DNA of 64,000 nucleotides, taken from the NCBI GenBank assembly GCA_964016885.1, contig OZ024751.1, forward strand, positions 9,114,001 through 9,178,000, given 5' to 3'. Source of the DNA: Eledone cirrhosa (taxonomy: Eukaryota). The position numbers were made by a program, and so were the translations under genes. The first letter of the stretch is position 1. Each line of letters begins with the position of its first letter. Under the pieces are notes generated by a model. That model searched no databases. It was not told where the DNA came from and was given only the letters and a program-made list of their open reading frames with translations. Below, piece after piece: positions 9,297-58,560 of the stretch.

Positions 9297-9297
<1 letters not shown>

Positions 9298-27519: not shown

Positions 27520-28600
<1,081 letters not shown>

Positions 28601-35052: not shown

Positions 35053-35654
<602 letters not shown>

Positions 35655-35967: not shown

Positions 35968-37695
35968 AAACAAACAAAACATTACTGATTTAAATCATCT
36001 CTATTATGCAGCGGCTAAAGTCACCACTCACTTATGTGGAGTGAAGATGAAAAAACAAAGAAATTCCCACAATAAATCTACTTGGCAAGAGAACATCAAT
36101 CGCCAAATAAACCTTCTCCGATCTGACATAGAAATGTTAACAAACTATAAAGTAGGTGAACATGTTAAACAAACTAAACTTAGAAAATTGAAAAAAAAGT
36201 ACAGTATAAAATCAACATGTGACATAGACATGCTGATAGAAATAATCAAGCAAAAAGTGTCGGCCAAATCTGCTCGTATAAGGCGCTTTGAAAAACGATC
36301 TAGATTCTATAAGGACAATAATATGTTCAAAAACAACCAAAGAAACTTCTACAGAAAAATTGGTAAGTCAACAATAACTGCTAAATCAATACCACCCAAG
36401 GAGGAAGTGCAAGAATTCTGGGAAAAGATCTGGGCCGAAGAAAAAGTTCATAACATACATGCCCCATGGATAGACAGACAAATGAAAGATACAGCTCACC
36501 TTGAGGAACAAACATGGGAAAATATAACAGTTGAACAGTTGCGCTTGGCTCTAAGAAAAACCAGCAAATGGAAATCCCCAGGAAAAGACAAAATACAAAA
36601 CTTTTGGATAGATGCCTTCACAGAGTCTCATGGGCTGTTAGCCCAACTTTACAATGAAATAGTTAAGGAGCCAGAAAAGATACCTTGATGGCTAGTTAAC
36701 GGCATTACATTCCTGCTTCCGAAGAATGATGAGACAAACAATCCCAAAAATTACAGACCGATAACTTGCTTGACCACAATGTATAACATTTTAACATCAG
36801 TCCTAAATGAATACACATATGACCACCTGATAACAAATGACCTATTTCCCATTGAGCAGAAAGGGTGTAAACGAGGCTCATATGGCTGTAAGGATCAGCT
36901 TCTGGTTAACAAAATGATACAAGATCAGTGTCTGCCAACAAAAAATTACCAAGCCAACATAATAAAAAATGGGTGCAGCCCATTATGCCGTGTATGCAAA
37001 AAACAACCAGAGACCATTGACCATATCATTTCAATGTGCAGTCCTATAGCTCAAACCGAATACCTAAACAGGCATGACAGAGCTGCACAATACATACATT
37101 GGATAATGTGTAAGCATTTTGACCTACCCCATCAAAAGAATTGGTGGGAGCATCAACCACTTCCCATACTTGAAAAAGATCACATCTCAATCTTGTGGAA
37201 CTTTAGCATCCAAACAGACCGAAAAATAGATGCAACCAGACCTGATATAATATTGAAAGACTTTCAAAAGAGGGTATGCCTGCTAATTGATATGTCTGTT
37301 CCAATAGACAAGAATGTATCTATAAAAACATTTGAAAAATTGAGCAAGTATAAGGACCTGGAGATAGGAATTGGAAAATTGTGGAAATTGAGAACTAAAA
37401 CAATACCAGTGGTTGTAGGCGCTCTGGGAATGATACATAAGGAGGCTAATGATTACTTATCGCAAATCCCAGGAAACCCACGTATAGGAGAAATACAAAA
37501 GATAGTACTAATGGGAACTGCCCATATACTAAGGAAGATTCTGTCAATATAAGTACATCACAAGTCTAAACACTAAAGATGCATGTGTGAATATGTATGT
37601 TCTTTCTTGAACATGGCGGACCTTGTTGTCTCTTCAGGTCACTGGTTGTGACTTGGTGATAACTCGTATGAACATAAAGCAAGATAAATGCAACT

Positions 37696-37696
<1 letters not shown>
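35968..37696 (+). mobile_element. R4/Dong-like family B, 5'-truncated and internally deleted copy
   Basis: Matches 39711-40663 joined to 41936-42710. Ends in (TAA)n at 37697-37765. Confidence 0.92.
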
Positions 37697-37763
<67 letters not shown>

Positions 37764-37765
<2 letters not shown>

Positions 37766-40700
37766 GGGAAGAAGACGCACGAGGTGGTAGAAGGTCACGA
37801 AATCGCTCCCGTAAGTTTTTGATTTTTAACATATTTAAATCAATTGTGAAATAACAATTCTTAGTACAAATGTTGCATAAACCACCGAATGAAGTTCCAT
37901 AAAATTTCGGATCCATATTATATTGTTATAACGCTCAAATATCCAATTTTGTATTATATATTTTGTATTCAAAAAAAGAAAATGGTTATAAATGGAAGAA
38001 AACACCCTCTGTCTACACTATATATAACAGCCAAATAACAGCAATTTCACCAACACCAGAAACTTGATACACCACCTATCCCATCACACTAAATATAACA
38101 GCCAGATAACGGCAATTTCACCACCACCACCACCATCAATCCCGGCATGATAATAATAATTACTATTATTATTGTCTCAAATTTTAACAAAATGTTTAAT
38201 TCCAATTTTACGGGAATATGTCAACACAATATATATTAAACATACGAACACAAACTCATAGATACTACATATCACAAAACCCAGTAACGACAACGCCACC
38301 GCCGCCACCACCCCATCCATCATCTTGCTACCACTATCCCATCGCCGCCGCCACCACTCCTTCATTGCTGCCACCACTATTCCCCTGTTAACTTGAGAGA
38401 GAAAGGGGAAGGTGGCGGTATCACTAGACAAGGGAGAGGCTAGCAAAATATATAAATAGATTGACTTAGTGACCTGGCCACCGGCCAAACGTCAACATCA
38501 ACAACTATGGGACTGCTGGCTCACCCCTTCCTCACCAACAATATAAAAAGCCCCGGCACCACCACCGACATAGCCAACAACAATAACAGGCAACTACAGC
38601 AAAAAGTATATTATATTATTGTAATGCACTGGGTGATTGCTGGCCTTGTGCCTGGAGTGGAGACAATTATTAATAATTTCATTCTTAAGCCACGCAATGC
38701 TCACATTAAGGACCACTCATGATAATAACAATTTAAAAAAAACAACAAAAAGAAAACCCCGTGACCAAGAAATACCGGGATAGCGGCCGGCGAGGAATAA
38801 CCGTGTCTCTAGGGGAGAACGACCCCTCTAGTCTTGGTTGACACTCATTCTAGAAGTGGTAACACGAAATGATTACCCCTTGGCGGATAAGGATAAAACG
38901 CAACAAAATAAAGTAAATGTCCAATGATAAAATCTCATACCGGATCGGCCGTCACCCGGGTAAAAAAGGGCCGCGTCCCTCAGAGAGGAACCAGACTGGG
39001 GTCGAAAAATCAGCTAATGGTTCAAACCTTCCCATCACTTCGGAGCTGGAGACCTCCCATAACCGGAATACTCCTACTGTTGGCCCTCCATGCTCACCAC
39101 CAAGAAATCCAAAGAAAAAGAGAGAAAAATGGTCAAGGGAAGATAATAAAGAAGTCATTGAGGCTTTCTACACTGCCATGTACTACCCATCAAATACATC
39201 GAATACAGAACAGACATATATCAACTGGAAAAAGAAACATCCCGAAAACAGAGGCTATATTGACAGTAACAAACTAGCCAATATACGAAGAAATATTGTA
39301 AGAAAAAAGTTACTAACTGATATAGAAATTGATCAGATCAAGCTATTAGCACAAAGTCAGCGAAGGGAAAATGAAACATGTGTCAGTGAAAACGAGGTAA
39401 ACTGTAACACTTCGAACCCCAGGGTTGGGGCGGAATGACTGGCAACAGAAAAAATTAAAGAAAGGATCGAAAAAGTGGAGGGAGTGCATGCTCAGGATGA
39501 AACTCCAAATGGAAATAATGAGATCGTAAATGATAAAGAAATGAATGAGAATGAACTTGCCAACTTGAAGGATGAAATTATGATCGAATGGATGAAAATG
39601 AAAGAATCTGATATGGGGCAACGAGAGACCCTCCCTAAGATCCAGAACTCCAAACAGAACCAAAAGATAATACACAAGACTAACATAATTCTAAAAAACA
39701 TTATCATCACAAACAAACTAAACATTACTGATTTAAATCATCTCTATTATGCATCGGCTAAAGTCACCACTCACTTATGTGGAGTGAAGATGAAAAAACA
39801 AAGGAATTCCCACAAGAAATCTACTTGGCAAGAGAACATCAATCGCCAAATAAACCTTCTCCGATCTGACATAGAAATGTTAACAAACTATAAAGTAGGT
39901 GAACATGTTAAACAAACTAAACTTAGAAAATTGAAAAAAAAGTACAGTATAAAATCAACATGTGACATAGACATGCTGATAGAAATAATCAAGCAAAAAG
40001 TGTCGGCCAAAGCTGCTCGTATAAGGCACTTTGAAAAACGATCTAGATTCTATAAGGACAATAATATGTTCAAAAACAACTAAAGAAACTTCTACAGAAA
40101 ATTTGGTAAGTCAACAATAACTGCTAAATCAATACCACCCAAGGAGGAAGTGCAAGAATTCTGGGAAAAGATCTGGGCCGAAGAAAAAGTTCATAACATA
40201 CATTCCCCATGGATAGACAGACAAATGAAAGAAACAGCTCACCTTGAGGAACAAATATGGGAAAATATAACAGTTGAACAGTTGCGCTTGGCTCTAAGAA
40301 AAACCAGCAAATGGAAATCCCCAGGAAAAGACAAAATACAAAACTTTTGGATAAATGCCTTCACAGAGTCTCATGAGCTGTTAGCCCAACTTTACAATGA
40401 AATAGTTACGGAGCCAGAAAAGATACCATCATGGCTAGTTAACGGCATTACATTCCTGCTTCCGAAGAATGATGAGACAAACAATCCCAAAAATTACAGA
40501 CCGATAACTTGCTTGACCACAATGTATAACATTTTAACATCAGTCCTAACTGAATACACATATGACCACCTGATAACAAATGACCTATTTCCCATTGAGC
40601 ATAAAGGGTGTAAACGAGGCTCATATGGCTGTAAGGATCAGCTTCTGGTTAACAAAATGATACTGGAAGATTGTCATAATAGACACAAAAATCTATCGAT

Positions 40701-42710
40701 TGCTTGGATAGATTATAAAAAAGCATTCGATAGTTTGCCACACAGTTGGATTGAAAAATGTTTAGAGATTTTCAAAATATCCCCCGTTGTCAGGAGGTTT
40801 TTGTCATTCAGTATGAAGACATGGAAATCGACACTCCTTTTGAATAGTGAAACAAAATCACTGGAAGCTGGAGAAGTTAATATTAATTGTGGAATTTTTC
40901 AGGGTGACTCTTTATCACCGCTTTTATTCTGCATCGCACTTATACCATTAAGTAAAATGCTCAATGAAACAAAACATGGATATAGAGTCTATGACAAAAC
41001 CATTAATCACCTGTTCTATATGGATGACCTGAAACTATTTGCAAAAAATGATGAACAATTGCAAGGGCTATTATCCACTGTGGGGCAGTTCAGTGATGAC
41101 ATTAAAATGGAGTTTGGACTAGATAAATGCGCCAAAGCAACGTTCACCAGAGGAAAGCTGCTGAAGAGTTCAGACTTTAATCTTGATCGGGGGAACGTGA
41201 TAAGAGAACTTGATCAATAAAAAACTTACAAATATCTAGGTGTTTGTGAAGGAGACGGAATAAAGCACTCGACAATGAGGGAAAGGATAAGGAAGGAATG
41301 TTACCGCAGAGTAAGAGCAATCTTAAGAACGGAATTGAATGAAAGGAATAGGATCGATGCCATAAACACGCTTGCCATACCAGTAGTAACCTACAGTTAC
41401 AATGTCATCAACTGGTCAAGCACAGAGATCCGTAGGCTCGATACAAAAATTCGAAAATTCTTAACCATGCACAGAATGCATCACCCTAATGCAGATATAG
41501 ATAGAATATATCTCCCTAGGAAATAAGGAGGACGTGGGTTAATCCAGTTAGACATTGCGTTGAAAACTGCAACAATTGGATTATCTACATATCTAAGGGA
41601 ATCACATGATTGGATGATCAAACTCGTTTTGAAACACGAAAGCATCAAAAGATCATATTCCATTACAGAAGATGCACAAAGATACAGTAATGGACTACAA
41701 ATTTCAGAAGTCCCATTTACTGCTGAAATGGAAAACACAGAAAAAGCAAAGCAGGTAAAAGTAACTGCAAAGAAAGAACTGCTACAGAAACTGGCTAAGA
41801 AATGGCAAGAAAAGCCTCTGTATGGAAAATACCCAGAGCGAGCTAACAATCCTGATGTTGACAAAACTTTAACCCATCAGTGGTTGGCATCCTCTGGACT
41901 GAAATCGGAGACTGAAGGACTGATTATATCAGCACAAGTTCAGTGTCTGCCAACAAAAAATTACCAAGCCAACATAATAAAAAATGGATGCAGCCCATTA
42001 TGCGTGTATGCAAAAAACAACCAGAGACCATTGACCATATAATTTCAATGTGCAGTCCTATAGCTCCAACCGAATACCTAAACAGGCATGACAGATTTAC
42101 ACAATACATACATTGGATAATGTGTAAGCATTTTGACCTGCCCCATCAAAAGAATTGGTGGGAGCATCAACCACCTCCCATACTTGAAAAAGATCACATC
42201 TCAATCTTGTGGAACTTTAGCATCCAAACAGACCGAAAAATAGATGCAAATAGACCTGATATAATATTGAAGGACTTTAAAAAGAGGGTATGCCTGCTAA
42301 TTGATATGTCTGTTCCAATAGACAAGAATGTATCTATAAAAACATTTGAAAAATTGAGCAAGTATAAGGACCTGGAGATAGAAATTGGAAAAATGTGGAA
42401 ATTGAGAACTAAAACAATACCAGTGGTTGTAGGCGCTCTGGGAATGATACCTAAGGGGTCTAATGATTACTTATCGCAGATCCCAGGAAACCCGCGTATA
42501 GGAGAAATACAAAAGATAGTACTAATGGGAACTGCCCATATACTAAAGAAGATTCTGTCAATATAAGTACATCACAAGTCTAAACACTAAAGATGCATGT
42601 GTGAGTATGTATGTTCTTCCTTGAACATGGCGGACCTTGTTGTCTCTTGAGGTCACTGGTTGTGGCTTGGTGATAACTCGTATGAACATAAAGCAAGATA
42701 AATGTAACTG
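37764..42710 (+). mobile_element. R4/Dong-like family B, full-length inactivated copy
   Basis: ~1.15 kb 5' leader, ORF remnants at 38917-42566, 3' UTR, and (TAA)n on both sides. Confidence 0.92.
38917..42566 (+). pseudogene. RT + CCHC + restriction-like endonuclease ORF with several stops and a frameshift
   Basis: [59 protein letters not shown] and RPDII..IDMSVP..K..KY. Confidence 0.92.
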
Positions 42711-42989
42711 TAATAATAATAATGCTTTCTTTATTAACCATAAGGGTTTACAAAATGTAGACTTTAAGGGCAGTACAGGACAATACAGGACGGTAGAAAT
42801 GGGCATTTCTACGTGTAAAAAAACAAAAACAGAGGATGTAACAAAAAAATAACAATGAAAAATTCCCCAATAGGGGGGAGACTTACGAGGGACATTTGTG
42901 GAGAAAGCCCATTAAAAAACCACAGTGACCCTGACCACCAGGGCAAGTGCCCTCTCCCAATTTACCACCTTTAATTTACAGACACATAG

Positions 42990-45900
42990 ACAGAGTAGGC
43001 CCATTCTCTCACCTATCTTTCAACAAAATGCTGGGAAGAGAGCACTTCCCTCTCTACCCTGATTTTCCTTTTCAAATGAATTTTGAAAAAGTTAATCAGG
43101 GCATCACCGAAGAGGTAAGTTCTCGTCTTCAGCTCTTTCAAACGTGTCCACCATACTATCTCTTTCGCCATGACCATCAGACAGATAAAAACTGCCTGCC
43201 CTTCCCGGCTAAAGGAAGAGGGCGCGGCAATCATCACGATGGACTTAGCTGATAGCTGGATCCGGCCTACACGTGACAGCAGGTGTTCGACATAAACGCA
43301 GAAATCAGCAATGCTCGGACACTGGACGAGTGCGTGCAGGACGGTTTCGCCGCCCTGCGCGCATCTCGGACATGCCCGGCTGACGGCACCTCGATGCCTG
43401 TAGAGTTTATCCCGAACTGGCAAAGCTCCTCGGTAGCACTGCCAGACCAGGGATTTCTGGAAATTATCCATAGGCTCCGGCCCGAAAGTTCTTCCGAAGA
43501 GATTGGCTAGTTGATTTTCATCGACGACTAGAGTTTCCCCAAGTGTGTCGTCAATTCCTCTCCCATAATCCTCTATAGAACGCCAAGGTGGAGTTTCCAC
43601 CGATCACATTGCCCAATTGGTCGAGGGCTGTGAGCGCCTGAAGACATTCCAGTCTCCCAGCGCTCCCTATCGGTCTTCGCTTGACCCAGGACTGCAGCTC
43701 CGTCAAGGAGACGAGCTGGGAAAAGACGCGTCTAGCAAACGGCGACCACACCTGAGCACCGTTGAGGAAGAGGTGGAGATGTCGTAGCCTGAGCGCGTGT
43801 CTGCGCATCATCAGCCACGGCATGCCCAGCCCTCCACGTAGCGGATGTTGACAGCAGATGGACCGCCTGACCATCGGAGCGCGTTCCTTCCACAAAAACG
43901 AAAGAGCAAACGCTCCAGCGCAGTCAGGCGGTGCTTAGGACAAGGTACGAGGGTCAGACGGTAGTAGATGAAGGACGCGATGTACGCGTTAGCCACCTCC
44001 GCTCGACTTTTAAGGGATAGTTTCCTCTCGGCCCATTTCTGGATGAGAGAAGCCACCCTGTCGTCACCTCGTCCCAGTTTTTGTCCGTCTGCAGGTCCGG
44101 ACCGAACCAGACCCCTACCAATTTAACCGGTCCGTCCGTCCAGCGTCCGACGACGCTGTTGGATGGCATGGACCTGCCTCTCCAGGTGCCGAGCTGCAGG
44201 CCCACTGACTTTTCCTGGTTGATCATTGCTCCTGTCACCGCTTCGTATTCTCTTAGTGTAGTGCCGATCGCCTTGATGTGTTTGGCGTTCGACACCACTA
44301 CGGTGACATCGTCCGCATCTTAGTTCGCGCGGGACCCCCCTCAACCTCTCCAGTTTGTGCACTAATGGCTCGAGAGTCAATACGTACAAGAGGGACGAGA
44401 GGGGACATCCTTGGCGGACCGAGCGCATGATGTTGAACGGTTCCGAAAGGTGACCGTTCACTCTCACCACAGAAGTCGCTGTGCATGGCAGGGATCCAGC
44501 TTCTGAAGACGGGCCCAAAGCCAGCCGACCTCAGGACTACCGCTAGGTAACGATGGTCGACCCTATCGAAAGCTTTCGACTGATCTAAATTGATCAAGGA
44601 CCCACTCCTTCAGGTTCACTAGCAACCCTCTCTACGATGTATCGCATGAGGTGGAGGTTGTCTTGGATGGATCTGTCGGGAATGGCGCATGCCTGCGCCT
44701 CTCCGACCAGACCACCAACGACAAGCGCCAACCCCTTTGCTAGCACCTTGGCCAAAATCTTGAACTCTGTGATTTTAGCAGAGTTATGGGCCTAAACTTA
44801 TATGTTATCCACCTTGTTCGGATCATTTTTCAGCAGCGCCAAAGCTCCTCGGCTCACAGAGCTGGGAATTCTCCCGTTCTGTTGCCAGTTGCAGTAGACG
44901 TCCGCCAAGAGGCCTCCGAACAATATGGCATCTGTACGTAAAGTTCATAGGGCAGACCATCCAAACCAGGCGATTTACCCCTTGTGCAGCCAGTTATTGC
45001 ATCCCGTACTTCAGCAGCTGTTATCAGCTTTTGGCAACACTCCGCCTCAGTGGCCGAGAGCCGCGGCAGTCCGTCGAGGTAGAAATTAAAGTCCATCCCT
45101 CGATCAGGCCCGACGCCGCCCCTGAACAGCTGTGCGAAGTGTCGCTGAAAAGTTTCACACATTTGCCCGGGATCGAGTAGCATTCCCCCGTCGTGGTCCA
45201 CCAAAGACCAGATCGTGGCTTTGTTGCCACGACGCGCCTCCGCCACTCGGGCCCATTGAACGGCTTTCGTCCCCTCGTGTCTGAGAGCACGCACCCTAGC
45301 TCTGACAACGTAGCCAGCGTGCTTTGCATTGAAGAATTGGTCAAGGGGCAATTTCGCCGCAAATACGTCGGTCGCGATGCCTTTGCTAAGCGCCTCGTCT
45401 AATGTTCTAACTAGTTTTCCCTCTGCTCTATTTTTCTCTATAGCTAAAGACTTACTAAACCTAATGGACTCTATTCTAATCGCTCTTTTCAGAGCAAACC
45501 ACCAGTTGTTGCTGGTCCCCGTCAACGCCCGCTTAACTAGTTCGCTAATCTGGTCTCTGTAGGCCTTGCGCGCTGGTAAAGACGCGTTTAGCTTCCAGTA
45601 GCCGGGTCCTCGTCTATGAAGCCTATCTAAGTCAAGCACACAGATCACGAATTTGTGGTCCGTGTAGCTGACTATCTTGAATTGTGGACAGCCTATGCTA
45701 GACCTATCTATTTCCCTACAAAATACTCTATCTAGATATGATCTGGATGACCCCATGCGATTTGTCCAAGACAATATTGGCACATTCGGGAAATCCAATC
45801 GGTACCTGTCAGACAGTACAAAACGCCTGAGCAGGTTGGTGAGGCTCTTGCACCCTTCTCCTCCCGATCCAGGACGGCTGGGAGATGCGTACACATCGTA

Positions 45901-46062
45901 GCCGCCGAATATCGGTGCAAAGACCCATGTTTCGGAGATTCTCGTCTCGCTGATGGCCACTACATCTAAGTTTAGTGACCTGAGGTCGTTGAGCAGGTGG
46001 CCCTGCTTCCATGACGACCCCAAGCCACGCACATTTATGCTGCCTATTCTGAGTGAGGTCAT
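42990..46062 (-). pseudogene. Tx1-like ORF2 (APE endonuclease, RT, C-terminal CCHC), fragmented
   Basis: SINVRGL, ISETR, SYLDRVF, YTDHK, GPGYWKLN, KSPGLDGLPYE, LDQSKAFDRVDH, SVRQGCPLS, GGLGMP and CPRCAQGGETVLHALVQC. Confidence 0.9.
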
Positions 46063-46139
46063 GTTGAAATGGAGGGGAAAAGATGAAAAAGACCACTTAC
46101 CTTACTTCTCGTAGAGGAAGGATGGTTTCTCCATCCCTT

Positions 46140-47969
46140 TCACTGCTTATGCGGAAGGATGTCCTTATAAATCCTCCTGGAGAGTGCTTGTCGGAAGTCT
46201 CCGATATCTTTGGGGAATTTTTGTGTTAGTGTCGTGTACGTTTTCTGTGTGATGCGAGTGATTTGTATGTGTGGAGGTAGAGTGAACGTTTGGGTTGTTG
46301 TGTAGTCTTTTTCTGTGATGCTGGTGTTGTGTTGGATGTAGTGTAATAATTGGTTGTTGTTCAAATATATTGCTGTGTAGTGTGTATCGTTTTGGTTGTT
46401 TTGTTTGCGTTTGTTGTGGGTTTGTTTCTGTTTCGCATTTTTGGTGACTTTTGTGGTGTTGGTGATGCTGGTGTGGATGGTGGCATATCTGCCCTAACTT
46501 TTGTGTTTGATAGTTTATTTGTTTTCCTCTGTATTTTGTTTTTGGAGGGGGAAGGAAGAGGATTTTTTGTTTTTTGGTTTCTTTTTCTTTTTTTGTTTTT
46601 TCCTGATACCGTTTCCCATTCCTCGACATCACAATCTGTCTCCAGTTGCGATAGGTCGGGGAGTGGAAAATCCTCTACAGGCGTTGGTTTTGGTTGTGGC
46701 GTGGTGGATGATGTAGGCGCTGGTGCTAGTTCTGGCGCGTTGGGTGGTGGTGGTTTTGGATTTGTTACTGTTGCTGGGCTTGTTGCTGTTACATTTGCTT
46801 CGGTTGTTGCTGCTACAGCTGTTGCTGCCATTTCTGTTGCTGGTGGTATTCATGGTTTAGTCACTAGGTAGGGTAAGAGAGGTGGTCTCAACCTTTTAGC
46901 CTGAGGGCAGAAAGCCCTTAGGTGGGTTCCTTCACCACAAACGACACACCTAGGCCTTCTGCCCTTGACGATTATGGTGAGGTAGCTGCCGCCAGTGAGG
47001 TCTATTACCTCTGGGATCTCCTCAATGCTTTTTTGGTCCGCTTGGATCAGGAGCTCCATCCCAGATCCGGACCAGTTCTCCTGCTTTTCCTTCGCTATTT
47101 CGATTATGTTGGTGTTGGCCTCGATGCCGGCGAGGACGGCAGCCATTAGCCATGGAATTTCGATGGCCGGTAGAACGTAGGTCACCCTGATCTTCACGAG
47201 TCTCTGGCCTCAATAGCTTGAGACGAGTATGAAGTCGTCACTTCTTAATGGGGCCATGGAGTGTTCTCTGGCTTCCTGTGGTGTTTCAAAGAACACGTCC
47301 AAGGTTCCATATTTCTACGCACGTCTGATGTAGGTTTTTTTTTGCCCACACATGTCCCAAAGCTTTTTGGATTTGGGACTCGGATGCCCGTTCCACTCGG
47401 CGCGATTTTATGTTAATCGTCCGATAAGACACGGTGGATAGGCGCCGATGCTCCATTTTATTAGGTGTGTGGGGAGGGGGGGGGAGGCTAAACCTGTACC
47501 CATCTTTCTTTACCATTATTTTGGCTTCTTCTAATTCCTCCTGAGTTACCTGTATTGCTTCGCACTTTTTTCCTACTCTGGCAAAAGACAGGGTTTTCTT
47601 ATTCTCATTGTTGCTGTTGTTGTTATCGTTATTTTTGTTATTGTTAATTTTAGTTTCAATTGTGGTGGTGGTGGTGGCGTCAGTGGTGTTCGGTTTGGAA
47701 GAGTTCATTTTGCGTGAATTCATTTCGATATCACGAGATAATTTATTTTTTTCTTTTGTTTCTGTTGTCGCTGTGGTGGAGGCTTCAACACCTGCAGTCA
47801 TTGGTAATGGCGGGAAATGAATGTCTGCTTGAGACAAATTTAGAATATTGCTACCGCTTATATTTTTAGTGTTGGCAAACGTAGTAATATTTACAATGGT
47901 GGTGTCGGTGTGAAGTGATAGTTTGTGAGGAAGGCTCTCAGCTACTGGGTTCAGCTGTGAGTCGGCCAT
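46140..47969 (-). pseudogene. Tx1-like ORF1 (gag-like), fragmented
   Basis: CX2CX4HX4C knuckle CVVCGEGTHLRAFC, a Pro/Thr-rich segment and basic WETVSGKNKKRKR. Lies upstream of ORF2. Confidence 0.75.
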
Positions 47970-48173
47970 GATTTTTAAAAGAATTTTTTTTTTTTTTTAT
48001 ATTTATTAAAGTTTAAATTTTGGGCTCTTTTTGAGTGTCCTATTCAGAAAACAATGTATGTGTACTTATATACAGTTAGCAATAAAAATTTTCCATAAAT
48101 GGCAATTTTAAACAACTGAAAATAACAAACCTTAGCGGAGCTCACGATAATACGATTTACTACATAGGTCACC

Positions 48174-48234
<61 letters not shown>
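48174..48234. repeat. (TAA)n spacer between head-to-head Tx1 and R4/Dong A2
   Basis: Pure AAT repeat. Confidence 0.95.
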
Positions 48235-51200
48235 GTAAAGGGAAGAAGACGCACGAGGTGACGGAGGTCATGAAATCGCTCCCGTAAGTTTTGAATTTTT
48301 AACATATTTAAATCATTTGTGAAATAACAACTCTTAGTACAAATGCTACGTAAAGCACCCGGCTTGAGCCCCAAAAAATTCGGACCCAAAATATATTGTT
48401 ATAAGGCTCAAATATTCAAATATTCAACTTTGTATTGTACACTGTATATCCAAAAAAGAAAATGGCTATAAATGGAAGAAGAAGAACCCCCACCCCCTCC
48501 TCTCCTCTGGCTACACTATATAGGACAGCTAAACTCACCAACACCAGAAACTAGATACACCACCCACCCCATCATCTGTGTACACTAAACACAACAGCCA
48601 GATAACGACATTTTCACCTTCACCGCCACCGCTCACTACGGCCACCATTACCACCACTATCCCATCACCGCCGCCACCACCCCTTGACTCCTTCACTACT
48701 GCCACCGCTACAGCACCATCACTACAGTAATACGGTCACATCACCGCCACCACTGCCTCGGTATCGACATCACCACCGCCACTGTCTCAGTATCGCTACC
48801 GCCGCCAGTCTCCACTTCTCCCTGCTGGCTGTTACTTCCACATTATAGAATTCCTACTACTAACAAAGAGGAAGGCATCAACATATATAGATAGACTCAA
48901 AAGAAAAAAGAAAAAACAAACAACAAAACCAAAGCAGCACAGCAACAACAGCAAAAACGAGAAAAACAAACAGAGAAAAACAAAAACAAAAAAAGAAACC
49001 CAAAAAACGTAAAGAAAATAAGAATGAAGAGAGAAGCAGGCGGACGGACAGAGAAGAGGGGGGAAAAAGTAAAACTTAAAAAACAAAAACTAAGTCAGAC
49101 ATTCGAACACTACATTACAATGAAACTTATGCTTATTCATTTTTGGGGCCCTTTCTGCCTGTGTGTTTGTTTGTTTATGTGTGTTCGTATACAGCGTGGT
49201 GATAATGCCACACAAGGGCCAAGTGGGATGGCGGACCCACAGATGGCTATGTAACTATACATTCGCCAATCCTCGATAAGAGTGTTTAAATATCGAACAT
49301 AAACAGTTCGAATAACGGTGAAATGGAGACTAGAACGTCATGTGACAGACTCTCACCCAACAGGTGCCCCCTGGCTCAGCAGCAGGAACCTGACTGTCAA
49401 CCAAATACTGCTGATGTTGGAGGAAGAAGAAGAAGGAAAGGGGCCAGAACCAACTGGACGAAAGAATTGAATAGAACTGTTATGCAATGTTACCTGAAAA
49501 GTAACCCCAAGGAGAGGGGCTACAGGAGACGGATGCATAACATCTGGAACGAGATTGGTTTATTTAAATTAGATGAACAAAAATTGGCCGGGCAGGATCG
49601 GGTAATAAGAACTAATGGGTGGATAAGCGAGCTGGAACTGGAGGAACTGAGCAGAGAGAATGGCTTGGAGATGGCGGGTGCAGTATGCCAGACAAGCGAG
49701 CCGGTGGGAAATGAAGGTGAGGAGGTCCTGAGAACGGAGGAACCACCCGAAGCAGACAATGATCTGAATACTGAGATAAATAATACCTGGAACAGAGATA
49801 CGGCCACTGAGGAGATGAATGCTGACGGGCTAGGAGAAGATTCGGTTGACATCCTAAATTTAGTGGTAGATGAATTGAACAATGATAGTGGGAGACCTAT
49901 GAACCTAAGATTTGTAGACAGGAAAAAGTTAAAAGAAACAACAGCTAAGTTAAACAAAGTCATCCCATACCTTGAGGCGAGGAGCCTTCACCAGTGCAAC
50001 AATATCCTCAAAGCAACAGCAAATACGGTGAGGAAACTACTTGGTATAAAAGCGAGAGGAAACAACAGACAAGAAAGAGCAGAGCCGTGGTGGAAGAAGC
50101 GACTGAGTGGGCAAATCGGGGAAATGAGAAATGACATAGGAAAGCTTGAGTCACTACTGAATGGGACACTAAAAAACATAGGCACTAAAAATAGACTGAA
50201 AATAAAATACAAAACTAGGAGTAAAAAGCTAAATATTATCATAGAGGAATTGAAGCAACGCATTGTAGCAAAGAGTGCAAAAATCAGGCGATACGAGAAC
50301 AGAGTCAGTCAGTATAAACAGAACCGCATGTTCGACAACAACCAGAAGATGCTGTTTGGACAGCTTGAGGGGAAAGAAAGAGGCAACGTCTTGATCCCTG
50401 GGGCGGAACAAACTAAAACATTCTGGAGAGGAATATGGGAGCAGGATGTTAGACACAATGCCCAGGCAGGGTGGATTGAGACAGTACAGAGGGAGATCGG
50501 TGAGCAGGCACAACAACAGACTGATTTGAGTATCACAGTTGAAACTCTTAAGGGGCAAGCCAAAAAACTAACCAACTGGAAATCACCAGGCCCAGATGGT
50601 GTGCAGGGGTATTGGATTAAACATTTAACATCCCTCCACCCGAAGCTGACGGCCATGTTCAATGACTGCTTGGTGTCGGGTGAGGTGCCAGAGTGGTTGA
50701 CAAAAGGTACCACAGTTCTGATAATGAAAGACCGAATCAAGGGTAATGATGTTACCAACTATAGACCTATCACATGTCTGCCCGTAATGTGGAAACTGTT
50801 GACGAGCATTGTGTCTGAGGAAATCTACCATCACCTCCACACAAACAACCTGTTACCGGACGAACAGAAAGGATGCCGAAAGAAGTCACGTGGTACAAAG
50901 GACCAGTTGCTTATTGATAAGATGGTAATGGGGAATTGCACGAGGAGACACACTGATCTTGCCATGGGATGGATAGACTACAGAAAGGCATTTGACATGG
51001 TGCCTCATTCCTGGATCACCAAAAGCCTGGAGATCTTCAGGGTGGCAGATAACATCAGACAGTTGCTAGGCAGGAGTATGGGGTCCTGGGAGACAGAGCT
51101 GACATCAACTGGAGTATCCTTGGGAAGCGTGAAGATCAAGAGAGGTATCTTCCAGGGAGATAGCCTGTCCCCTCTGTTGTTTGTCCTTGCCCTGATGCCC

Positions 51201-52789
51201 TTGACCATTATGCTGCGAAAAGTGAGAGCAGGATACAAGTTGGGAAGGGGAGAGCTTACCATCAATCACCTCCTCTTCATGGACGATCTTAAGCTCTTCG
51301 GGAAAAGTGAGAAGGAGTTGGATGTGCTTGTTGACACTGTCCGTATTTTCAGCAGTGATATATGTATGCAGTTTGGTATTGGTAAATGTGGAGTCATTGT
51401 GATGAAGAGGGGTAGGTTGAGCAGAAGTAACGGGATCCAGATACCAACAGGTGAGATGATAAAGGAAATTGACTCTGAGGAAGGATACAAGTATTTGGGC
51501 GTTCTGGAGGCTGATGGCATAAAGAACAAAAAAATGAAGGAATTGTTAAGAACTGAATACATTCGGAGAGTAAGGAGCGTATTGAAGTCACATCTGAACA
51601 GCAGAAATGCCATAAGCGCAGTAAATTCCCGAGCTGTGTCTATTATTAGGTACAGTGCGGGAATTCTGAGATGGAATGTTGCTGAACAAAAAGAAATGGA
51701 TAGGAAGACTAGGAAGCTATTGACCATCTACAACATGTTCCACAAGAGGAGTGATGTCGATAGACTCTACCTAAGGAGATCTGAGGGTGGAAGAGGTCTT
51801 ATCAGCATAGAGGACTGTGTTCAGATGGAGAAAAACAACCTATACAAATACGTGACCTATAGTAAGGAGCCAATGCGCAGAACTGTACTGAAGGAGGGGA
51901 CAGTAGGCCAGGGGATGTCCAAGGAGGAAATAACATCAAGGAGGAAGAGCAGCCTTAAGGGAAAATCCCTTCATAGTACCTTCTTTGAGAAAACTGAATT
52001 TAGAGATCCACAGACATGGAACTGGTTGAGAAGAGGAGACCTCAAAAAGGCTACAGAAGGAATGCTAATGGCTGCGCAGGAGCAGGCCCTCAAAACGAAG
52101 TGGTTGAAGCACCATATCTACAAGGAGGAGGCTAGCCCACTGTGCAGGATCTGTGGAGAGAGAGAGGAGACTGTGGCTCACATTGTGTCCGAGTGTAAAC
52201 ACCTAGCCCAGACCCACTATAAGGGCTGGAGACACGATGTGATGGGCAGGGTGATCCACTGGCACCTGTGCAAAGTAAACAATCTACCACATTCTGAGAA
52301 ATGGTATGAGCATAGGCCAGAGGCGGTGATGGAGAACAATCAGGTGAAGGTGCTGTGGGATTTTAGGATACAGACGGACAAAAAACTGGAACACAATAGA
52401 CCTGACCTGGTGGTTGTGGACAAAGAAAAAAGATCGTGCCTGATTGTGGATGTGGCCTGCCCGTTCGACACGAGAGTGCAAGAGAAGGAGAGGGAGAAAA
52501 TTAACCGATACCAGGACCTAAAGTGGGAGGTGAAAAGGATCTGGAACTGCCATGAAGTCAAAGTGATCCCGATTGTCATAGGCGCACTGGGGACTATCTC
52601 CAAAAGTTTCCAGGGATGGTTAAAGAAAATCGGCCCCTTCACGCTTTTTGGAACGCTTCAAAAGGCATGCTTGCTTGGAACAGCAAGAACCCTCCGATAC
52701 GTCCTGAATATCTGAGGCTGCAGGTAGTGGCTTGATATTCAATCCAACGGACTTTCCAGTTAACCAACATCAATGACTGAGATTCAAGG
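48235..52789 (+). mobile_element. R4/Dong-like family A copy 2, full length with intact ORF
   Basis: 1.09 kb leader, 1130-aa ORF, short 3' UTR, with TAA-type repeats on both sides. Confidence 0.95.
49323..52715 (+). CDS. Non-LTR retrotransposon protein: reverse transcriptase + zinc knuckle + restriction-like endonuclease (R4/Dong-like)
   Basis: Uninterrupted 1130 aa with [69 protein letters not shown] and RPDLVVVD..VDVACP..K..RY. Confidence 0.95.
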   Translation: METRTSCDRLSPNRCPLAQQQEPDCQPNTADVGGRRRRKGARTNWTKELNRTVMQCYLKSNPKERGYRRRMHNIWNEIGLFKLDEQKLAGQDRVIRTNGWISELELEELSRENGLEMAGAVCQTSEPVGNEGEEVLRTEEPPEADNDLNTEINNTWNRDTATEEMNADGLGEDSVDILNLVVDELNNDSGRPMNLRFVDRKKLKETTAKLNKVIPYLEARSLHQCNNILKATANTVRKLLGIKARGNNRQERAEPWWKKRLSGQIGEMRNDIGKLESLLNGTLKNIGTKNRLKIKYKTRSKKLNIIIEELKQRIVAKSAKIRRYENRVSQYKQNRMFDNNQKMLFGQLEGKERGNVLIPGAEQTKTFWRGIWEQDVRHNAQAGWIETVQREIGEQAQQQTDLSITVETLKGQAKKLTNWKSPGPDGVQGYWIKHLTSLHPKLTAMFNDCLVSGEVPEWLTKGTTVLIMKDRIKGNDVTNYRPITCLPVMWKLLTSIVSEEIYHHLHTNNLLPDEQKGCRKKSRGTKDQLLIDKMVMGNCTRRHTDLAMGWIDYRKAFDMVPHSWITKSLEIFRVADNIRQLLGRSMGSWETELTSTGVSLGSVKIKRGIFQGDSLSPLLFVLALMPLTIMLRKVRAGYKLGRGELTINHLLFMDDLKLFGKSEKELDVLVDTVRIFSSDICMQFGIGKCGVIVMKRGRLSRSNGIQIPTGEMIKEIDSEEGYKYLGVLEADGIKNKKMKELLRTEYIRRVRSVLKSHLNSRNAISAVNSRAVSIIRYSAGILRWNVAEQKEMDRKTRKLLTIYNMFHKRSDVDRLYLRRSEGGRGLISIEDCVQMEKNNLYKYVTYSKEPMRRTVLKEGTVGQGMSKEEITSRRKSSLKGKSLHSTFFEKTEFRDPQTWNWLRRGDLKKATEGMLMAAQEQALKTKWLKHHIYKEEASPLCRICGEREETVAHIVSECKHLAQTHYKGWRHDVMGRVIHWHLCKVNNLPHSEKWYEHRPEAVMENNQVKVLWDFRIQTDKKLEHNRPDLVVVDKEKRSCLIVDVACPFDTRVQEKEREKINRYQDLKWEVKRIWNCHEVKVIPIVIGALGTISKSFQGWLKKIGPFTLFGTLQKACLLGTARTLRYVLNI

Positions 52790-52820
52790 AATAACAATAA
52801 CAATAATAATAATAATAATT

Positions 52821-55800
52821 GCTGAAATAAATAATACCTGGAACATAATACGGCCATTGAGGAAATGAATGCTGAGGGGCTAGAACAAGATTTGGTTGAT
52901 ATCCTAAACTTAGTGGTAGATGAAATGAACAAAGATAATGGGAAACCTATGAACCTAAGATTTGTAGACATGAAAAAGTTAAAAGAAACAACAGCTAAGG
53001 TAAACAAAGTCATCCCATACCTTGAGGCGAGGAACCTTAACCAGTGCAACAATATTCTCAAAGCAACAGGAAATGCGGTGAATAAATTACTTGGCATAAA
53101 AGCGAGAGGAAAAAACAAACAAGAAAGATCAGAACCTTGGTGGAAGAAACGACTGAATGGTCAAATCAGGGAAATGAGAAATGACATTGGAAAGCTTGAG
53201 TCCCTACTGAATGGGACACTACAAAACACAGAGACTAAAAATAGACTGGAAATAAAGTACAAAACTAGGAGGAAAAAGCTAAATATTATCATAGAGGAAC
53301 TGAAGCAACGCATTGTAACAAAGAGCACAAAGATTAGGCGATACGAGAGCAGAGTCAGTCAGTATAGACAGAACCGCATGTTTGACAACAGCCAGAAGAT
53401 GTTGTTTGTACAGCTTGAATGGAAAGAAAGAGACAACGACTTGATCCCTGAGGCGGAACAAACTAAGACATTCTGGAGAGGAATATGGGAGCAGGGTGTT
53501 GAACATAATGATCAGGCAGTGTGGATTGAGACAGTACAAAAAGAGATTAGTGAACAGGCACACCAACAAACTGATTTGAATATCACAGTTGAAACTCTTA
53601 AGGGGCTGGCCAGAAAACTAACCAACTGGAAATCACCAGGTCCAGATGGTGTGGAGGGGTATTGGATTAGAATTATAACATCCCTCCACCCGAACTGACA
53701 ACCATGTTCAATGACTGCTTGGTGAGGTACCAGAGTGGTTGACAAAAGGTACCACAGTTCTGGTAATGAAATACCGAACCAAGGGTAATGATGTTAGCAA
53801 CTATAGACCTATCACATGTCTGTCCGTAATGTGGAAACTGTTGACAAGCATTATGTCTGAGGAAATCTACCATCAGCTCCACACAAACAACTTGTTACCG
53901 GACGAACAGAAGGGATGCCGAAAGAAGTCCCGTGGTACAAAGGACCAGTTACTTATTGATAAGATGGTAATGAGGAATTGCAGGAGGAGACACACTGGTC
54001 TTGCCATGGGATGGATAGACTACAAAAAGGCATTCGACATGGTACCTCATTCTTGGATAACCAAAAGAGATCTTCGGGGTGACAGATAACATCAGACAGT
54101 TGTTCAGCAAAAGTATGAAGTCCTGGAAAACCGAGTTAACATCGGGCAGAGAATCCTTAGGAGGCGTGAGGATCAAGAGAGGTGTCTTCCAGGGAGATAG
54201 TCTGTCCCCTCTGTTGTTTGTCCTTGCCCTGATCCCCCTGATCATTATACTGCGAAAAGTGAGAGCAGGATACAAGTTGGGGAAGGGAGAGCTTACGATC
54301 AATCACCTTCTCTTCATGGACACTCTAAGCTCTTCAGGAAGAGTGAGAAGGAGATGGATGTACTTGTTGACACTGTCCGTATTTACAGGAATGATATACG
54401 TATGAAATTTGGTATTAGTAAGTGTGGAGTCCTTGTGATGAAGAGGGGCAAATTGAGCAGAAGCAAGGGAATCCAGGTACCAACAAGTGAGATGATAAAG
54501 GAAATTGATGCTGAAAAGGGATACAATTATTTAGGTGTTCTGGAGGCTGATGACATCAAGAAAAAAAAATGAAGGAATTGATAAGATCTGAATACAATCG
54601 GAGGAGAGTAAGGAGCGTACGAATGTCACATCTGAACAGTAGGAATGCCGTGCAGTAAATTCCCGATCTGAGTCTATTATTAGGTAGAGTGCGGGAATTC
54701 TGAGATGGAATGTTGCTGAACAAAAAGAAATGGGTAGGAAGACTAGGAAGGTATCGACTACCTACAACATGTTCCACAAGAGGAGTGATGTCGATAGACT
54801 CTACTTAAGGAGATCTGAAGTTGGAAGAGGTCTTATCAGCATAGAGGACTGTGTTCATATGGAGAAAAACAACCTACACAAATACGTGACTTATAGTAGG
54901 GAGCCAATGCTCAGAGTTGTACTGAAGGAGAGGACAATAGACCAAGGGATGTCCAAGGAGGAAATAACAACCAGGAGAAAGAGCAACATTCATGAAAAAT
55001 CCCTTCATAGTACCTTCTTTGAGAAAACTGAATTTAGAGATCCACAGACATGGAACTGGTTTAAAAGAGGAGACCTTAAAAAGACTACAGAAGGAATGCT
55101 AATGGCTGCGTATGAGCAGGCCCTCAAAACGAAGTGGCTGAAACACCATATTTACAAGGAGGAGGTTATCCCACTGTGTAGGATCTGTGGAGAGAGGAGG
55201 AGACTGTGGCTCACATTGTATCCGAGTGTAAAGACCTAGCCCAGACTCACCACAAAGGCTGGAGACATGATGTGATGGGCAGGGTAATCCACAGGTAGCT
55301 ATGCAAAGTAAACAATTTACCACATTCTGAGAAGTGGTATGAGCATAAGCCAGAGACGGTGATGGAAAACGATCAGGTGAAGGTGCTGTGGGATTTTAGG
55401 ATACAGGCGGACAAGCAACTGGAACACAATAGACCTGACCTGGTGATTTTGGACAAAGAAAAAAGATCGCGCCTGATTGTGGATGTGGCCTGCCCATTCG
55501 ACACGAGAGTGCAAGAGAAGGAGAGGGGGAAAATTAACCGATACTAGGAGTTAAAGTGGGAGGTAAAAAGTATTTGGAACTGCCATGAAGTCAAAGTGGT
55601 CCCGATTGTCATAGGCGCAATATGTAATATCTCAAAGAGTTTCCAAGGATGGTTAAAGAAAATTGGTCCCGCCCCGCTTTTTGGAACACTTCAAAAGGCA
55701 TGCTTGCTGGGAACAGCAAGAACCCTCCGATACGTCCTGAATATCTGAGGCTGCAGGTAGTGGCTTGATATTCATTTCAACAAACTTTCCAGTTAAATAA

Positions 55801-55823
55801 CATCAATGACTGAGACTCAAAGA
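52821..55823 (+). mobile_element. R4/Dong-like family A copy 3, 5'-truncated, more diverged, frameshifted
   Basis: Collinear with A2 from ~49771 through the 3' UTR, with multiple indels and stops. Confidence 0.92.
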
Positions 55824-55875
55824 ACAATAATAACAAAAATAATTTAAAAAAGAAAATAATAATAATAATAATAAT

Positions 55876-56824
55876 ACTTTCTTTATTAACCACAAAGGTT
55901 TACATAAAGTAGACATTAAGGACAGTACAGGACAATACAGGACGGTACAAATGGGAATTTCTGCGTGTAAAAAACAAAAACAGAGGATGTAACAAAAAAT
56001 AACAATGAAAAATTCCCCAATACGGGGGAGACTTACGAGGGACATTTGTGGAGAAAGCCCATTAAAAGGTCACAGTGACCCTGACCACCAGGGAAAGTGC
56101 CCTCTTCCAGTTTTCCACCTTCAATTTACAGGCATATACTCAGAGTAGGTTCATTCACTCGGGCCATTCTTGCCTCTCTCACTCATCTTTCAACAAAATG
56201 CTGGGAAGAGAACACTTCCCTCTCAACCCTGATTTTCCTTTTCAAATTTCATTTGAAAAAGTTAATCAGGGCATTACCGAAGAGGTAAGTGCTTGTCTTC
56301 AGCCCTTTCAAACGTGTCCATCATACTATCTCTTTCGCTATGGCCACCAGACAGATAAAAACTGCCTGCACTTCCAGGCTAAAGGAAGAGGGCAGGGTAA
56401 TCTTCACGATGGACTCAGCTGATAGCTGGATCCGGCCTACACGCGACAGCAGGGGTTCGACATAAACCCACAAGTCAGCAATGCTCGGACACTGGACGAG
56501 TGCGTGCAGGACGGTTCGTCGCCCTGCGCGCATCTTGGACAAGCCCGGTTGACGGCATTTCCATGCCTGTAGAGTTTATCCCAAACTGGCAAAGCTCCTC
56601 GGTAACACTGCCTGGCCAGGGATTTCTGGAAATTGTCCATAGGCGCTGGCCCGAAAGTTCTTCCGAAGAGATTGGCTAGTTGATTTTCGTCGACGCCTAG
56701 TGTTTCCCCAAGTACGTCGTCGCTCTTCCCCTCCACTAATCCTCTATAGAACGCCAAGGTGGAGTTTCCAACGATCATATTGGCCGACTGGTCAAGGGCA
56801 GTAAACGTCTGAAGACATTCCAGT
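55876..56824 (-). mobile_element. 5'-truncated copy of the Tx1-like element
   Basis: Collinear with 42724-43654. TAA repeats lie at 55855-55875 and 56832-56855. Confidence 0.9.
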
Positions 56825-58560
56825 GATCATCATAATAATAATAATAATAATAATACAACTGCCGGCACCACAACTATTATTGCTCCTTCATCTACTACTT
56901 CATTTTCTTCTACTACCGCCACCATCACTACCACTAATATCACCACCACCATCACGATTACTATTGCTACTACTACTACTTCTGCTACTGCAGCAGTTTT
57001 TCCTTCACACTTCTAAAAATGTTAAACTATGTTGATCTTCATCGCATTTCTTCTGCATTTTATTGTTTTTGTTCTACTTTATTATTGTTCATTGTTCTTC
57101 TTCGTATTGCTTCTCTTTTTTTTCTTATTTGTATGCTTCTTCTTATTATTGTTGTTGTAATTGTTACTGTTATTATTATTGTGCCTAAATCAGAAACGAC
57201 TATTGATATTAGTGTTGTTGTTGTTGTTGTTGTTGTTCTCTATCGCCTTTGTATTTTCTACCAGACACTATAATCTGCTGACCATGTCCTTCGAGGTCTT
57301 TCTTGTATGTTATCTCTTTTATGAAGTGCATTCAGTTTCACTTTCAAGATAGGAGAATTTCACAGAACATTTTTCCTTTCTTTCACTTTCCCCTTGTATC
57401 TGCGGGCTTCTGGTTTCCATTAATACCAAACAACATTATTTCCAGTTAAGTGGAATCTTTGCAACAACAAAAACAACAACAATAAAAAATAATGAAAAGG
57501 AAAGAAAAAAAACGGCACCATTTAGCTTTTTCTTTCAAAAATTTACATGTTATTGTTACGATTTTCCTTTTCCTGCTGCATTCAGATAACGCTTTTATAA
57601 CACACCTCATTTCACAATAATTCTGTTAGTTTAGTCCAGTTAAACAATTCTTTCTCAGTATATCTCTCCTCATTCACTACATTTCTTACAATTCGGTTTT
57701 CTTTTATTCTTTAGACATGGTTATTAAAAATGATTTTCTTTTCTTCTACCCATTTTCACGTACTTCCTCAGACTAATATTTTGTACGTTTTACTGAATTC
57801 ATCGTTTGTTCGCCATTGTTCATTAACTTTATATTTGAATGTTTCTATTCTCAAATTAGTATTTTGATAATTTTCCATGAGAAAACAGTTGAATTCATTG
57901 AAAGGAAACTCGACGTGAAGAGAAACCCAGAGAGCTCGAATATTCAATGCCGCTTTGTATGTTGCACTAATGACATTCAAAATAAAATAACATATCTTGC
58001 CATTTTATCTCCTTAAATTTAGGCAATATCATGTTTTAACCCCCAGTATAATAAATGCGATCCAATAACGCTAGATGTTCATAAGAAATAAACACCATTT
58101 AAAAACAGAGTCGAAAATAGGGTGTAATATAGCCATAGAAAAGGTGCTGAAAGGTTCCTGGCTAAATGGTATGGCGAAAGGGTAGAGCTCTTAGATTTAC
58201 GGGAGAGGTTGGATCACTGTAAGAAGTGTGTGAATCTTAGAGGGGAATATTTTGAATAAAATCATAATTAACTGATCCTCCTGTATTTTCTTTTAAACCA
58301 AAACCAGGAGATTTTCAGTTCCGCCTCCTATAGCGAACAGAATTCTTGTAGTTAGGACACGTATCATCTTAAATCTGTTTGGTTTGGACTGATCTTTGAT
58401 TAAACAGCAGTATCAATAATAAAACAATTAACTCAAATATTTTTAATATAACCCAAATATAAAAAAAAACATATAATGCATAAGTTTTCGTTTTAGCAGT
58501 CGCACAAATTATTTGATATGGCTTATGCGTGTGTATATATATATACATATATATATATAA

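Follow-up and report, generated by a model that had tools for sequence, protein, structure and literature searches.

The window, a 64,000-nt stretch of an Eledone cirrhosa contig, contains a chain of six retrotransposon copies (35968-56854), four Dong-like copies belonging to two families (A and B) and two Tx1-like copies (Table 1). They are linked by five TAA pads, and the two kinds lie on opposite strands, the four Dong-like copies in the TAA sense and the two Tx1-like copies in the TTA sense. This anatomy was established on the assembled sequence by self-BLAST and reading of the junctions, and is known from the assembly alone. The order, strands and pads given in the original prediction were as described when the junctions were re-read. 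The family A copy outside the chain also follows the orientation rule as claimed; it lies on the minus strand between TTA pads, (TTA)27 and (TTA)19, with a SINE-like head after the second pad. Other statements held in part. That the elements are joined by TAA agrees with the five pads but not with B', whose 5' side lacks a TAA pad; this copy is also missing about 1270 nt internally, at 36919. The copies called full do have both ends, but the ORFs of B and Tx1 are broken and only A has an intact ORF. The absence of ORFs interrupted by another element is true within the window but not genome-wide, where Dong is found within Tx1 (L102), Tx1 within Tx1 (L291) and the SINE within Tx1 ORF1 (L222, L227 and L229). 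The window is located at 9.1 Mb of a 53.9-Mb contig, and the element copies are dispersed rather than placed at chromosome ends.

Table 1. Members of the chain, the pads between them and the family A copy outside the chain
Feature	Positions	Strand	Remarks
B', 5'-truncated Dong-like family B copy	35968-37696	+	self-BLAST 98.1% and 96.6% vs B
(TAA)23 pad	37697-37765	+	between B' and B
B, Dong-like family B, both ends present	37766-42710	+	RVT_1 E 1e-25
(TAA)4 pad	42711-42723	+	B 3' end / Tx1 3' end, tail to tail
Tx1, Tx1-like element, both ends present	42724-48173	-	
(TAA)19 pad	48174-48233 (feature to 48235)	+	Tx1 5' end / A 5' end, head to head
A, full-length Dong-like family A element	~48236-52790	+	intact ORF
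A tail, ATAACAATAACAAT variant units, then (TAA)5	about 52791-52821	+	
A', old family A copy, 5'-truncated, frameshifted	52822-55823	+	89.9% vs A
Degenerate A-rich tail, terminal (TAA)6	55824-55875	+	between A' and Tx1'
Tx1', 5'-truncated Tx1-like copy, 3' 950 nt	55876-56824	-	88.7% vs Tx1
Right border of chain, 9 nt GATCATCAT, then (TAA)7	56825-56854	+	
A1, near-full family A copy outside chain	9297-13796	-	96.9% vs A

The open ORF of A (49323-52715, 1130 aa) matches RVT_1 (E 8e-23) and has no Exo_endo_phos match in Pfam, a layout of a single ORF with a central reverse transcriptase (RT) and without an APE. Its C-terminal motifs are CRIC..HIVSEC, a CCHC knuckle, and RPDLVVVD..LIVDVACP, a PD..D restriction-like nuclease. 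The ORF of B (38917-42566) has a similar layout interrupted by four in-frame stops and a frameshift. R2 proteins were the top PDB matches of A, with the nuclease segment aligned weakly (i-E 0.063). R2 has an N-terminal zinc finger or Myb; neither was found in A or B by Pfam or in the translations. Both families can be classified as Dong-like from their predicted single-ORF RT, C-terminal nuclease and insertion in (TAA)n in the TAA sense. Among the RT homologues listed (at least 120) and ten clusters inspected, none bears a clade name such as R4/Dong, HERO or NeSL. The A and B proteins share only 33-41% identity, yet a head of about 370 nt is common to both families at 76-79%. About 65 nt of a SINE tail are fixed within the B 5' UTR (~38621-38687). 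The head and tail of A are 99-100% identical to their 40 best genomic matches. The 3' ends of the family start with the ATAACAATAACAAT-type variant, as in A, in 7/30 cases and with ATAACAACAAT in 19/30; the variant tails are inherited within family A.

The Tx1 copy has an ORF1 from 47968, in which a CVVC..H..C (CCHC) knuckle was read by eye, and an ORF2 from 46062 with the order APE-RT-zinc finger (zf-RVT E 8.7e-7). Both are broken, the element having many breaks, and about 265 nt of the APE, present in other copies, are absent near 45858. A sister copy (L213) matches Exo_endo_phos (E 2.7e-8) and RVT_1 (E 2e-15) in Pfam; the APE fragment had no matches in PDB. The best informatively named homologue was the 'Transposon TX1 uncharacterized 149 kDa protein' (32%, E 4.7e-45). 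In a quick tree the Tx1-like element and the TX1 protein fell in a group of 59 rows (support 90, not starred) in which only a single row carries a name.

The private divergence of the copies is 0.4% for A, 0.9% for B, 1.2-2.2% for B', 3.5% for Tx1, 5.3% for Tx1' and 5.7% for A'. By this measure A is the youngest, and the gradation points to stepwise insertion. A likely order of arrival starts with A' and Tx1', followed by Tx1; B' and B would then have entered at the left pad, and A would be the latest arrival, between Tx1 and A'. B' is 96.6% identical to B whereas other genomic copies reach 99%, so that the window copies are not tandem duplicates. Tandem duplication as the source of this chain was ruled out by the identities, as no copy is another's nearest relative. 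In some arrays elsewhere, local duplication and later deletion may have contributed. No A>G excess, the scar expected of RNA editing, was present in the window copies; in the older ones the most frequent changes are C>T and G>A.

The strand rule was assessed in the whole genome by exact pattern counts at element ends. Before 2429 Tx1 5' ends, in-phase (ATT)4 was present in 2205 (91%) and (TAA)4 in none; after 6906 3' ends, (ATT)4 was present in 4462 (65%) and (TAA)4 in 3. The start was ATT in 40/40 consecutive Tx1 3' ends on contig C1. Minus-strand Dong heads (n=615) were preceded by (AAT)4 in 459 cases and by (ATT)4 in one; forward counts of the gapped Dong patterns count loci twice and were left out. 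Wrong-strand Dong head loci amounted to 3/1172 in all. Another family member was found just past the pad at 85/140 non-redundant element ends outside the window (150 flanks minus 5 in the window itself and 5 duplicated), and 84 of these 85 neighbours keep the strand rule. In a 600-kb sample taken at fixed positions, coverage by the three families is 0.12, 1.17 and 1.38%, B and Tx1 each exceeding 1%. Since they cover so little and yet adjoin one another so often, the chain is not a product of chance. The identity of the neighbour differs from locus to locus. Thus, the proposal that an RLE-type and an APE-type lineage occupy opposite strands of one repeat extends to the genome at large. The outcome that would have refuted the prediction, most copies without TAA at the 5' junction or a random orientation, was not seen: the repeat is present at 5' junctions, and the elements are oriented non-randomly. 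Exceptions, with TAA-to-TTA flips at A junctions, were seen at L091, L093, L095/096, L099, L102, L248 and L249, and tandem duplicated units at L242, L248 and L095/096. The ten 30-kb views were chosen as chain-like and yield no frequency.

The junctions of truncated copies distinguish the two kinds of element. TAA lies upstream of 47/57 5'-truncated A copies and 30/37 truncated B copies, so the pad is a target and not only a tail. Among consecutive Tx1 copies, from which 8/40 were dropped (5 with another 5' region, 3 ambiguous), a 5' pad was present in 18/18 full-length copies vs 3/14 truncated ones (at least 15 nt in the latter; Fisher p 2.8e-6). This sample replaced 24 earlier 'truncated Tx1' rows (12 TTA, 1 TAA, 11 none), which include alignment breaks. 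By this count, Tx1 is not a strict targeter of long repeats. Full-length copies with just 9-11 nt of ATT upstream occur at L314 and L317. Beside Tx1 and a SINE there are duplications of 12-20 nt at short sites starting with ATT, and at the non-repeat sites L291 and L305 those of Tx1 are 15 and 17 nt. SINE duplications of at least 11 nt, most of them starting with ATTAT, were found in 20/42 cases vs 1.6% of shuffled pairs. Treating the SINE as a strict repeat targeter was rejected, as 40/48 sampled copies lack a TTA run on their 3' side. A 3' tail common to the SINE and Tx1 was not significant (977 and 58 of 1000 shuffles equally good), so the partner link is the target motif only. A head common to Tx1 and Dong was likewise not significant in the first 150 nt (107, 246 and 330 of 1000 shuffles). 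At L321/L322 a marked pad was duplicated, and the 5' side exceeds the entire downstream pad by 18 nt, a surplus that slippage could explain. In 17 full-length Tx1 copies the first 24 nt after the 3' end include a variant, which recurs upstream in only 2, clearly in 1. The suggestion that each insertion regenerates a pad is likely, with indirect support from the family A variant tails, the Tx1 and SINE duplications and the two-sided pads of the full-length copies examined, but B' has no 5' pad and most truncated Tx1 copies have none of 15 nt or more. Relatives at 53 metagenome loci showed no long TTA or TAA run, but most are just 21-33% identical and many are truncated, so that they say little about the target.

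We hold it to be very probable that the chain is a set of copies of differing divergence, its two kinds using opposite strands of a single (TAA/TTA)n repeat, and that it likely built up through target-primed insertions one after another, with repeat likely left on both sides of each. Tx1 might instead be a strict (TTA)n targeter like Kibi or Koshi, without a leader, whose truncated copies lack a 5' pad because the target was deleted or the site later rearranged. Perfect (ATT)4 at most 5' and 3' ends would fit, as would 3' pads of at least 18 nt in 9/14 truncated copies, and some truncations adjoin a Dong end and may be secondary. We consider this unlikely, if worth keeping in view, because the duplications at L291 and L305 are clean, the 5' pad separates full-length from truncated copies, and truncated Dong copies retain theirs in 77/94 cases.

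The pads could also be only tails and leaders of elements brought together by recombination, tandem duplication or read-through co-mobilisation, without targeting. The tandem units at three loci show that duplication occurs, but TAA adjoins Dong copies truncated at random points, neighbours change between loci, and the six window copies differ in divergence with none another's nearest relative. For the window chain this account is largely refuted, and in general we find it very improbable. Still less credible is an assembly artefact in which repeats were joined through TAA overlaps. The short-read contigs and RAD reads listed include none that crosses a pad, and speak neither for nor against the joins. 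While the chain is known from the assembly and pads of 57-69 nt exceed short k-mers, each copy carries private mutations throughout, the short pads contain unique variants, and mis-joins would explain neither a constant ATT|GG phase across 2205 sites nor duplications specific to a locus.

If growth was by target-primed insertion, the Dong nuclease would nick the TTA strand inside a pad and copy an RNA ending in (UAA)n, which would explain its TAA orientation and its added tail repeats. The Tx1 APE would nick the TAA strand at 5'-(A)TAAT|R, a position read from the junctions, copy its RNA and close with a duplication of about 15-18 nt; a nick on this strand would account for Tx1 reading TTA. 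Full-length Tx1 RNA probably starts inside the upstream repeat, and annealing of the leader-derived cDNA end to the pad would produce the exact ATT|GG junction. The uneven distribution of 5' pads and the duplications at short ATT sites suggest that Tx1 is likely a cutter of a short motif and in part a maker of pads, to which Dong homes. It is possible, though we propose it tentatively and would not rely on it, that Tx1 acts as a pad factory, cutting a short ATTAT, carrying AUU repeats at both RNA ends and writing long (TTA)n tracts de novo. The unrelated Dong families would then depend on the opposite strand of these tracts, retrotransposons would have made most of the long (TAA)n tracts in this genome, and the chains would form a dispersed, telomere-like ecosystem of two clades.

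Targeting of TAA microsatellites by Dong has been described (PMC3812793), and R4 is counted among the RLE clades (PMC4640811). Families A and B resemble Bombyx Dong, DongAg and the snail DongBg in the TAA target, single ORF, RT and C-terminal restriction-like nuclease; they differ in that two families have a common head and form chains together with a Tx1 lineage. Bombyx Dong carries an HDV-like ribozyme (PMC3774820), whereas none was found in A or B by Rfam or by two home-made descriptors run without a positive control (0 matches). Tx1 elements that target microsatellites include Kibi at (TC)n, Koshi at (TTC)n and crocodilian elements at (TTCC)n/(TTTC)n, and SINEU has its target in common with Tx1-Mar (PMC4494074). 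The element described here is like them in its APE-type architecture and simple-repeat target, and a SINE has the same target, as with SINEU and Tx1-Mar. Unlike Kibi and Koshi, it has an ATT/(TTA)n target, a specificity resembling that for a short motif and a 15-18-nt duplication, and its target is the opposite strand of that of another clade. Within the literature searched, which did not include Repbase, no Tx1 element was described as targeting ATT. TRAS and SART lie in opposite orientations in the Bombyx telomeric repeat and form arrays (PMC10088271). The likeness extends to two families, one repeat, opposite orientation and arrays, but TRAS and SART are both R1-clade APE elements at telomeres, whereas here an RLE and an APE lineage occupy a repeat that is interstitial and dispersed over thousands of loci. 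For R2 RNA with upstream 28S sequence, annealing of the cDNA to the upstream target explains precise 5' junctions (PMC3774820). This is a precedent for uniform 5' junctions from target-bearing RNA; the difference is that here such a step is proposed, from junction sequences, for an APE element and a microsatellite, and a ribozyme was not found.

While Dong targeting of TAA was already known, the tie between the 5' pad and full-length Tx1 and the Tx1 and SINE duplications at sites starting with ATT are new. They add ATT to the list of Tx1 targets. With two unrelated endonuclease classes each using its own strand of a three-base repeat, and with thousands of loci to compare, the chains offer a simple setting in which to test what determines strand choice and 5' joining. 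As B and Tx1 each exceed 1% of the 600-kb sample, the chains make up a sizeable share of the genome. Insertions into pads that lie among other repeats would almost entirely escape short-read callers. In Octopus vulgaris, Dong-R4, with 5 families and 1129 insertions, is the largest of the recently active LINE groups (PMC13282606, Table 1), and few non-reference Dong insertions were reported in octopus (PMC9115989); the scarcity in one octopus vs the many recent copies in another may arise because such callers miss pad insertions. The origin of TAA microsatellites may also be concerned, given that 7/10 pads of at least 6 units in the 600-kb sample touch one of these elements.

Self-comparison and sequence reading of the chain recovered six elements on the strands given in the original prediction, with five pads of (TAA)n/(TTA)n between them. 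All four Dong-like copies in the chain (A and B, two families with a restriction-like endonuclease, and the truncated copies A' and B') are in the TAA sense, as is A1, a family A copy outside the chain, and both Tx1-like (APE) copies (Tx1, with both ends, and the 5'-truncated Tx1') are in the TTA sense. The pads join all six elements, but there is none to the left of B', which has an internal loss of about 1270 nt. The description of A as full held, and its 1130-aa ORF is the only open one in the chain, whereas the reading frames of B (four stops and one frameshift) and Tx1 are broken, the latter also missing about 265 nt of the endonuclease compared with sister copies. This structure was read from the assembly, and the short-read data do not span the pads. 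The A protein combines RT with a CCHC knuckle and the PD..D motif of a nuclease, and its closest solved structures are R2 proteins. The sister copies of Tx1 have APE and RT domain matches, and the best informatively named homologue is the TX1 149-kDa protein. Immediately left of the chain, beside a (TA)n run, lies a near-perfect inverted repeat, a MITE-like or fold-back element; all Rfam miRNA matches in it were below threshold.

Positions of the chain and of features in and around it (window coordinates)
Feature	Position	Remark
Chain	35968-56855	B', B, Tx1, A, A', Tx1'
Head of A	48236-48630	
Head of B	37766-38134	
SINE 3' tail	38621-38687	fixed within family B 5' UTR; also in L163
Inverted repeat	34982-35700	centre about 35304
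Matches to inverted repeat	27661-28078	
SINE-like head	13854-14100	adjoins upstream pad of A1, TTA sense

In the 3.0-Gb Eledone cirrhosa genome, the expected repeat adjoined 29 Tx1 3' ends, 30 Tx1 5' ends, 28 A 5' ends, 28 A 3' ends and 30 B 3' ends among the best 30 hits per end, each set including the window's own copy; two more A 3' ends showed TAA followed by TTA. Exact whole-genome patterns are free of best-hit bias. With these, (ATT)4 was found upstream of 2205 of 2429 Tx1 5' ends ((TAA)4, 0) and downstream of 4462 of 6906 Tx1 3' ends ((TAA)4, 3), and (AAT)4 preceded 459 of 615 Dong heads on the minus strand ((ATT)4, 1). Most copies elsewhere, then, neither lack the repeat at the 5' junction nor orient randomly. 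Truncated copies also have TAA upstream (A, 47/57; B, 30/37), and the repeat is therefore the target and not only the tail. Another member started just beyond the pad at 85 of 140 non-redundant ends, and 84 of the 85 neighbours kept the strand rule, which bears out the proposal that RLE-type and APE-type lineages share the repeat on opposite strands. The A, B and Tx1 families make up about 2.7% of a 600-kb fixed-position sample, and chance adjacency of members is roughly estimated at below 1%. This sample holds 26 pads, 10 of them with at least six units, and 7 of these 10 adjoin a copy of A, B, Tx1 or a 188-nt SINE. Many of its short pads belong to a repeated element with the motif (TA)n-G-(TAA)4 and have no Dong or Tx1 neighbours (loci L154, L156, L177, L198, L202). 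Chains of at least 20 kb appeared in several of ten hand-picked 30-kb views, and thus the chain in the window is not exceptional. That the observation is real and genome-wide is well supported.

The flank started with ATT in all of the first 40 consecutive Tx1 3' ends on one contig. Duplications of 15 and 17 nt accompany two truncated Tx1 copies, both at non-repeat sites. Judging from the junctions, the Tx1 APE would cut the TAA strand at 5'-(A)TAAT|R, leaving a stagger of about 15-18 nt. Among these 40 copies, 8 being omitted from the comparison, a 5' pad of at least 21 nt preceded 18/18 full-length Tx1, and one of at least 15 nt only 3/14 truncated ones (p = 2.8e-6). In a single case, that of a full-length Tx1 in a marked pad, the marker occurs on either side of the element, and the upstream repeat exceeds the whole downstream pad by 18 nt. 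Counting against this, Tx1 copies with an early 3' variant had the same variant upstream in only 2/17 cases, and in two full-length copies the upstream ATT stretch is just 9-11 nt. Tx1 RNA probably starts within the upstream repeat, the putative leader being comparable to the 28S sequence that R2 RNAs carry, as described in PMC3774820. There are signs that Tx1 partly makes the pads. The SINE lies mostly outside pads (40/48 sampled), and its duplications mostly start with ATTAT and measure 11-20 nt in 20/42 cases versus 1.6% in the control. Because the likeness of its tail to the Tx1 tail is not significant, a partnership with Tx1 is only probable. At L222, L227 and L229, three SINEs of unequal length occupy an identical site in Tx1 ORF1, a hot spot.

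Since variant tail units recur across A 3' ends (ATAACAACAAT in 19/30, ATAACAATAACAAT in 7/30), the repeat is likely templated by the A RNA over at least four units. In several young A copies, a short run of TTA separates the upstream TAA pad from the truncated 5' end or follows the tail; either fold-back or priming of the top strand on the UAA tail could produce it. TAA-to-TTA flips were also seen at element junctions (L091, L093, L095/096, L099, L102, L248, L249, L021); at L248/L251 everything in the chain beyond the flip, namely A and three B copies, runs in the inverted orientation. That no element interrupts another is true of the window but not elsewhere: at L102 an A copy sits on a TAA run inside a Tx1, both on the same strand, and orientation therefore goes with the repeat strand and not with the neighbour.

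Private divergence is 0.4% for A, 0.9% for B, 1.2-2.2% for B', 3.5% for Tx1, 5.3% for Tx1' and 5.7% for A', the older figures being possibly inflated by subfamily differences. Since this divergence is graded, and B' resembles B less than other genomic copies do, the chain was likely assembled stepwise, with the youngest element, A, in an inner pad. Other loci have tandem duplications (L242, L248, L095/096) and also deletions.

Earlier studies describe TAA, TC and TTC as targets of Dong, Kibi and Koshi (PMC3812793), crocodilian Tx1 targets and SINEU (PMC4494074), TRAS and SART in opposite orientation (PMC10088271), the abundance of Dong-R4 and L1-Tx1 in octopus (PMC13282606, PMC9115989) and R4-Dong almost limited to cephalopods among surveyed molluscs (PMC10294476). 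Dong is called APE-type in PMC3812793, while R4 is among RLE clades in PMC4640811. The Dong half is a new example of the same TAA-targeting habit. An ATT-specific Tx1, or chains of this kind, were not found in the literature searched; Kojima and Fujiwara 2004, Xiong and Eickbush 1993, Repbase or supplements could hold one. New here, within a familiar type of system, are the Tx1 target, the sharing of the repeat across clades and the sign of pad-making by Tx1.

The first ~370-450 nt of A and B are 76-79% identical, and over the first 150 nt none of 1000 shuffles was as good. This likeness despite 33-41% protein identity, with a third Dong head variant in flanks, points to a 5' module shared or exchanged between the families. 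Elsewhere in the genome (L105, L244, L235), this third variant and short Dong head duplications occur. Heads are sometimes lengthened upstream by long (GAA)n runs (L314, L295, L140, L039), apparently slippage on the GAAGAAG head. Tx1 subfamilies with 92-95% identical ORF2 and 3' ends have different ORF1/5' regions, and 5' module exchange among them is likely; more divergent Tx1 families exist too, and all are in the TTA sense (L283, L287, L288, L294, L309, L212, L227, L233).
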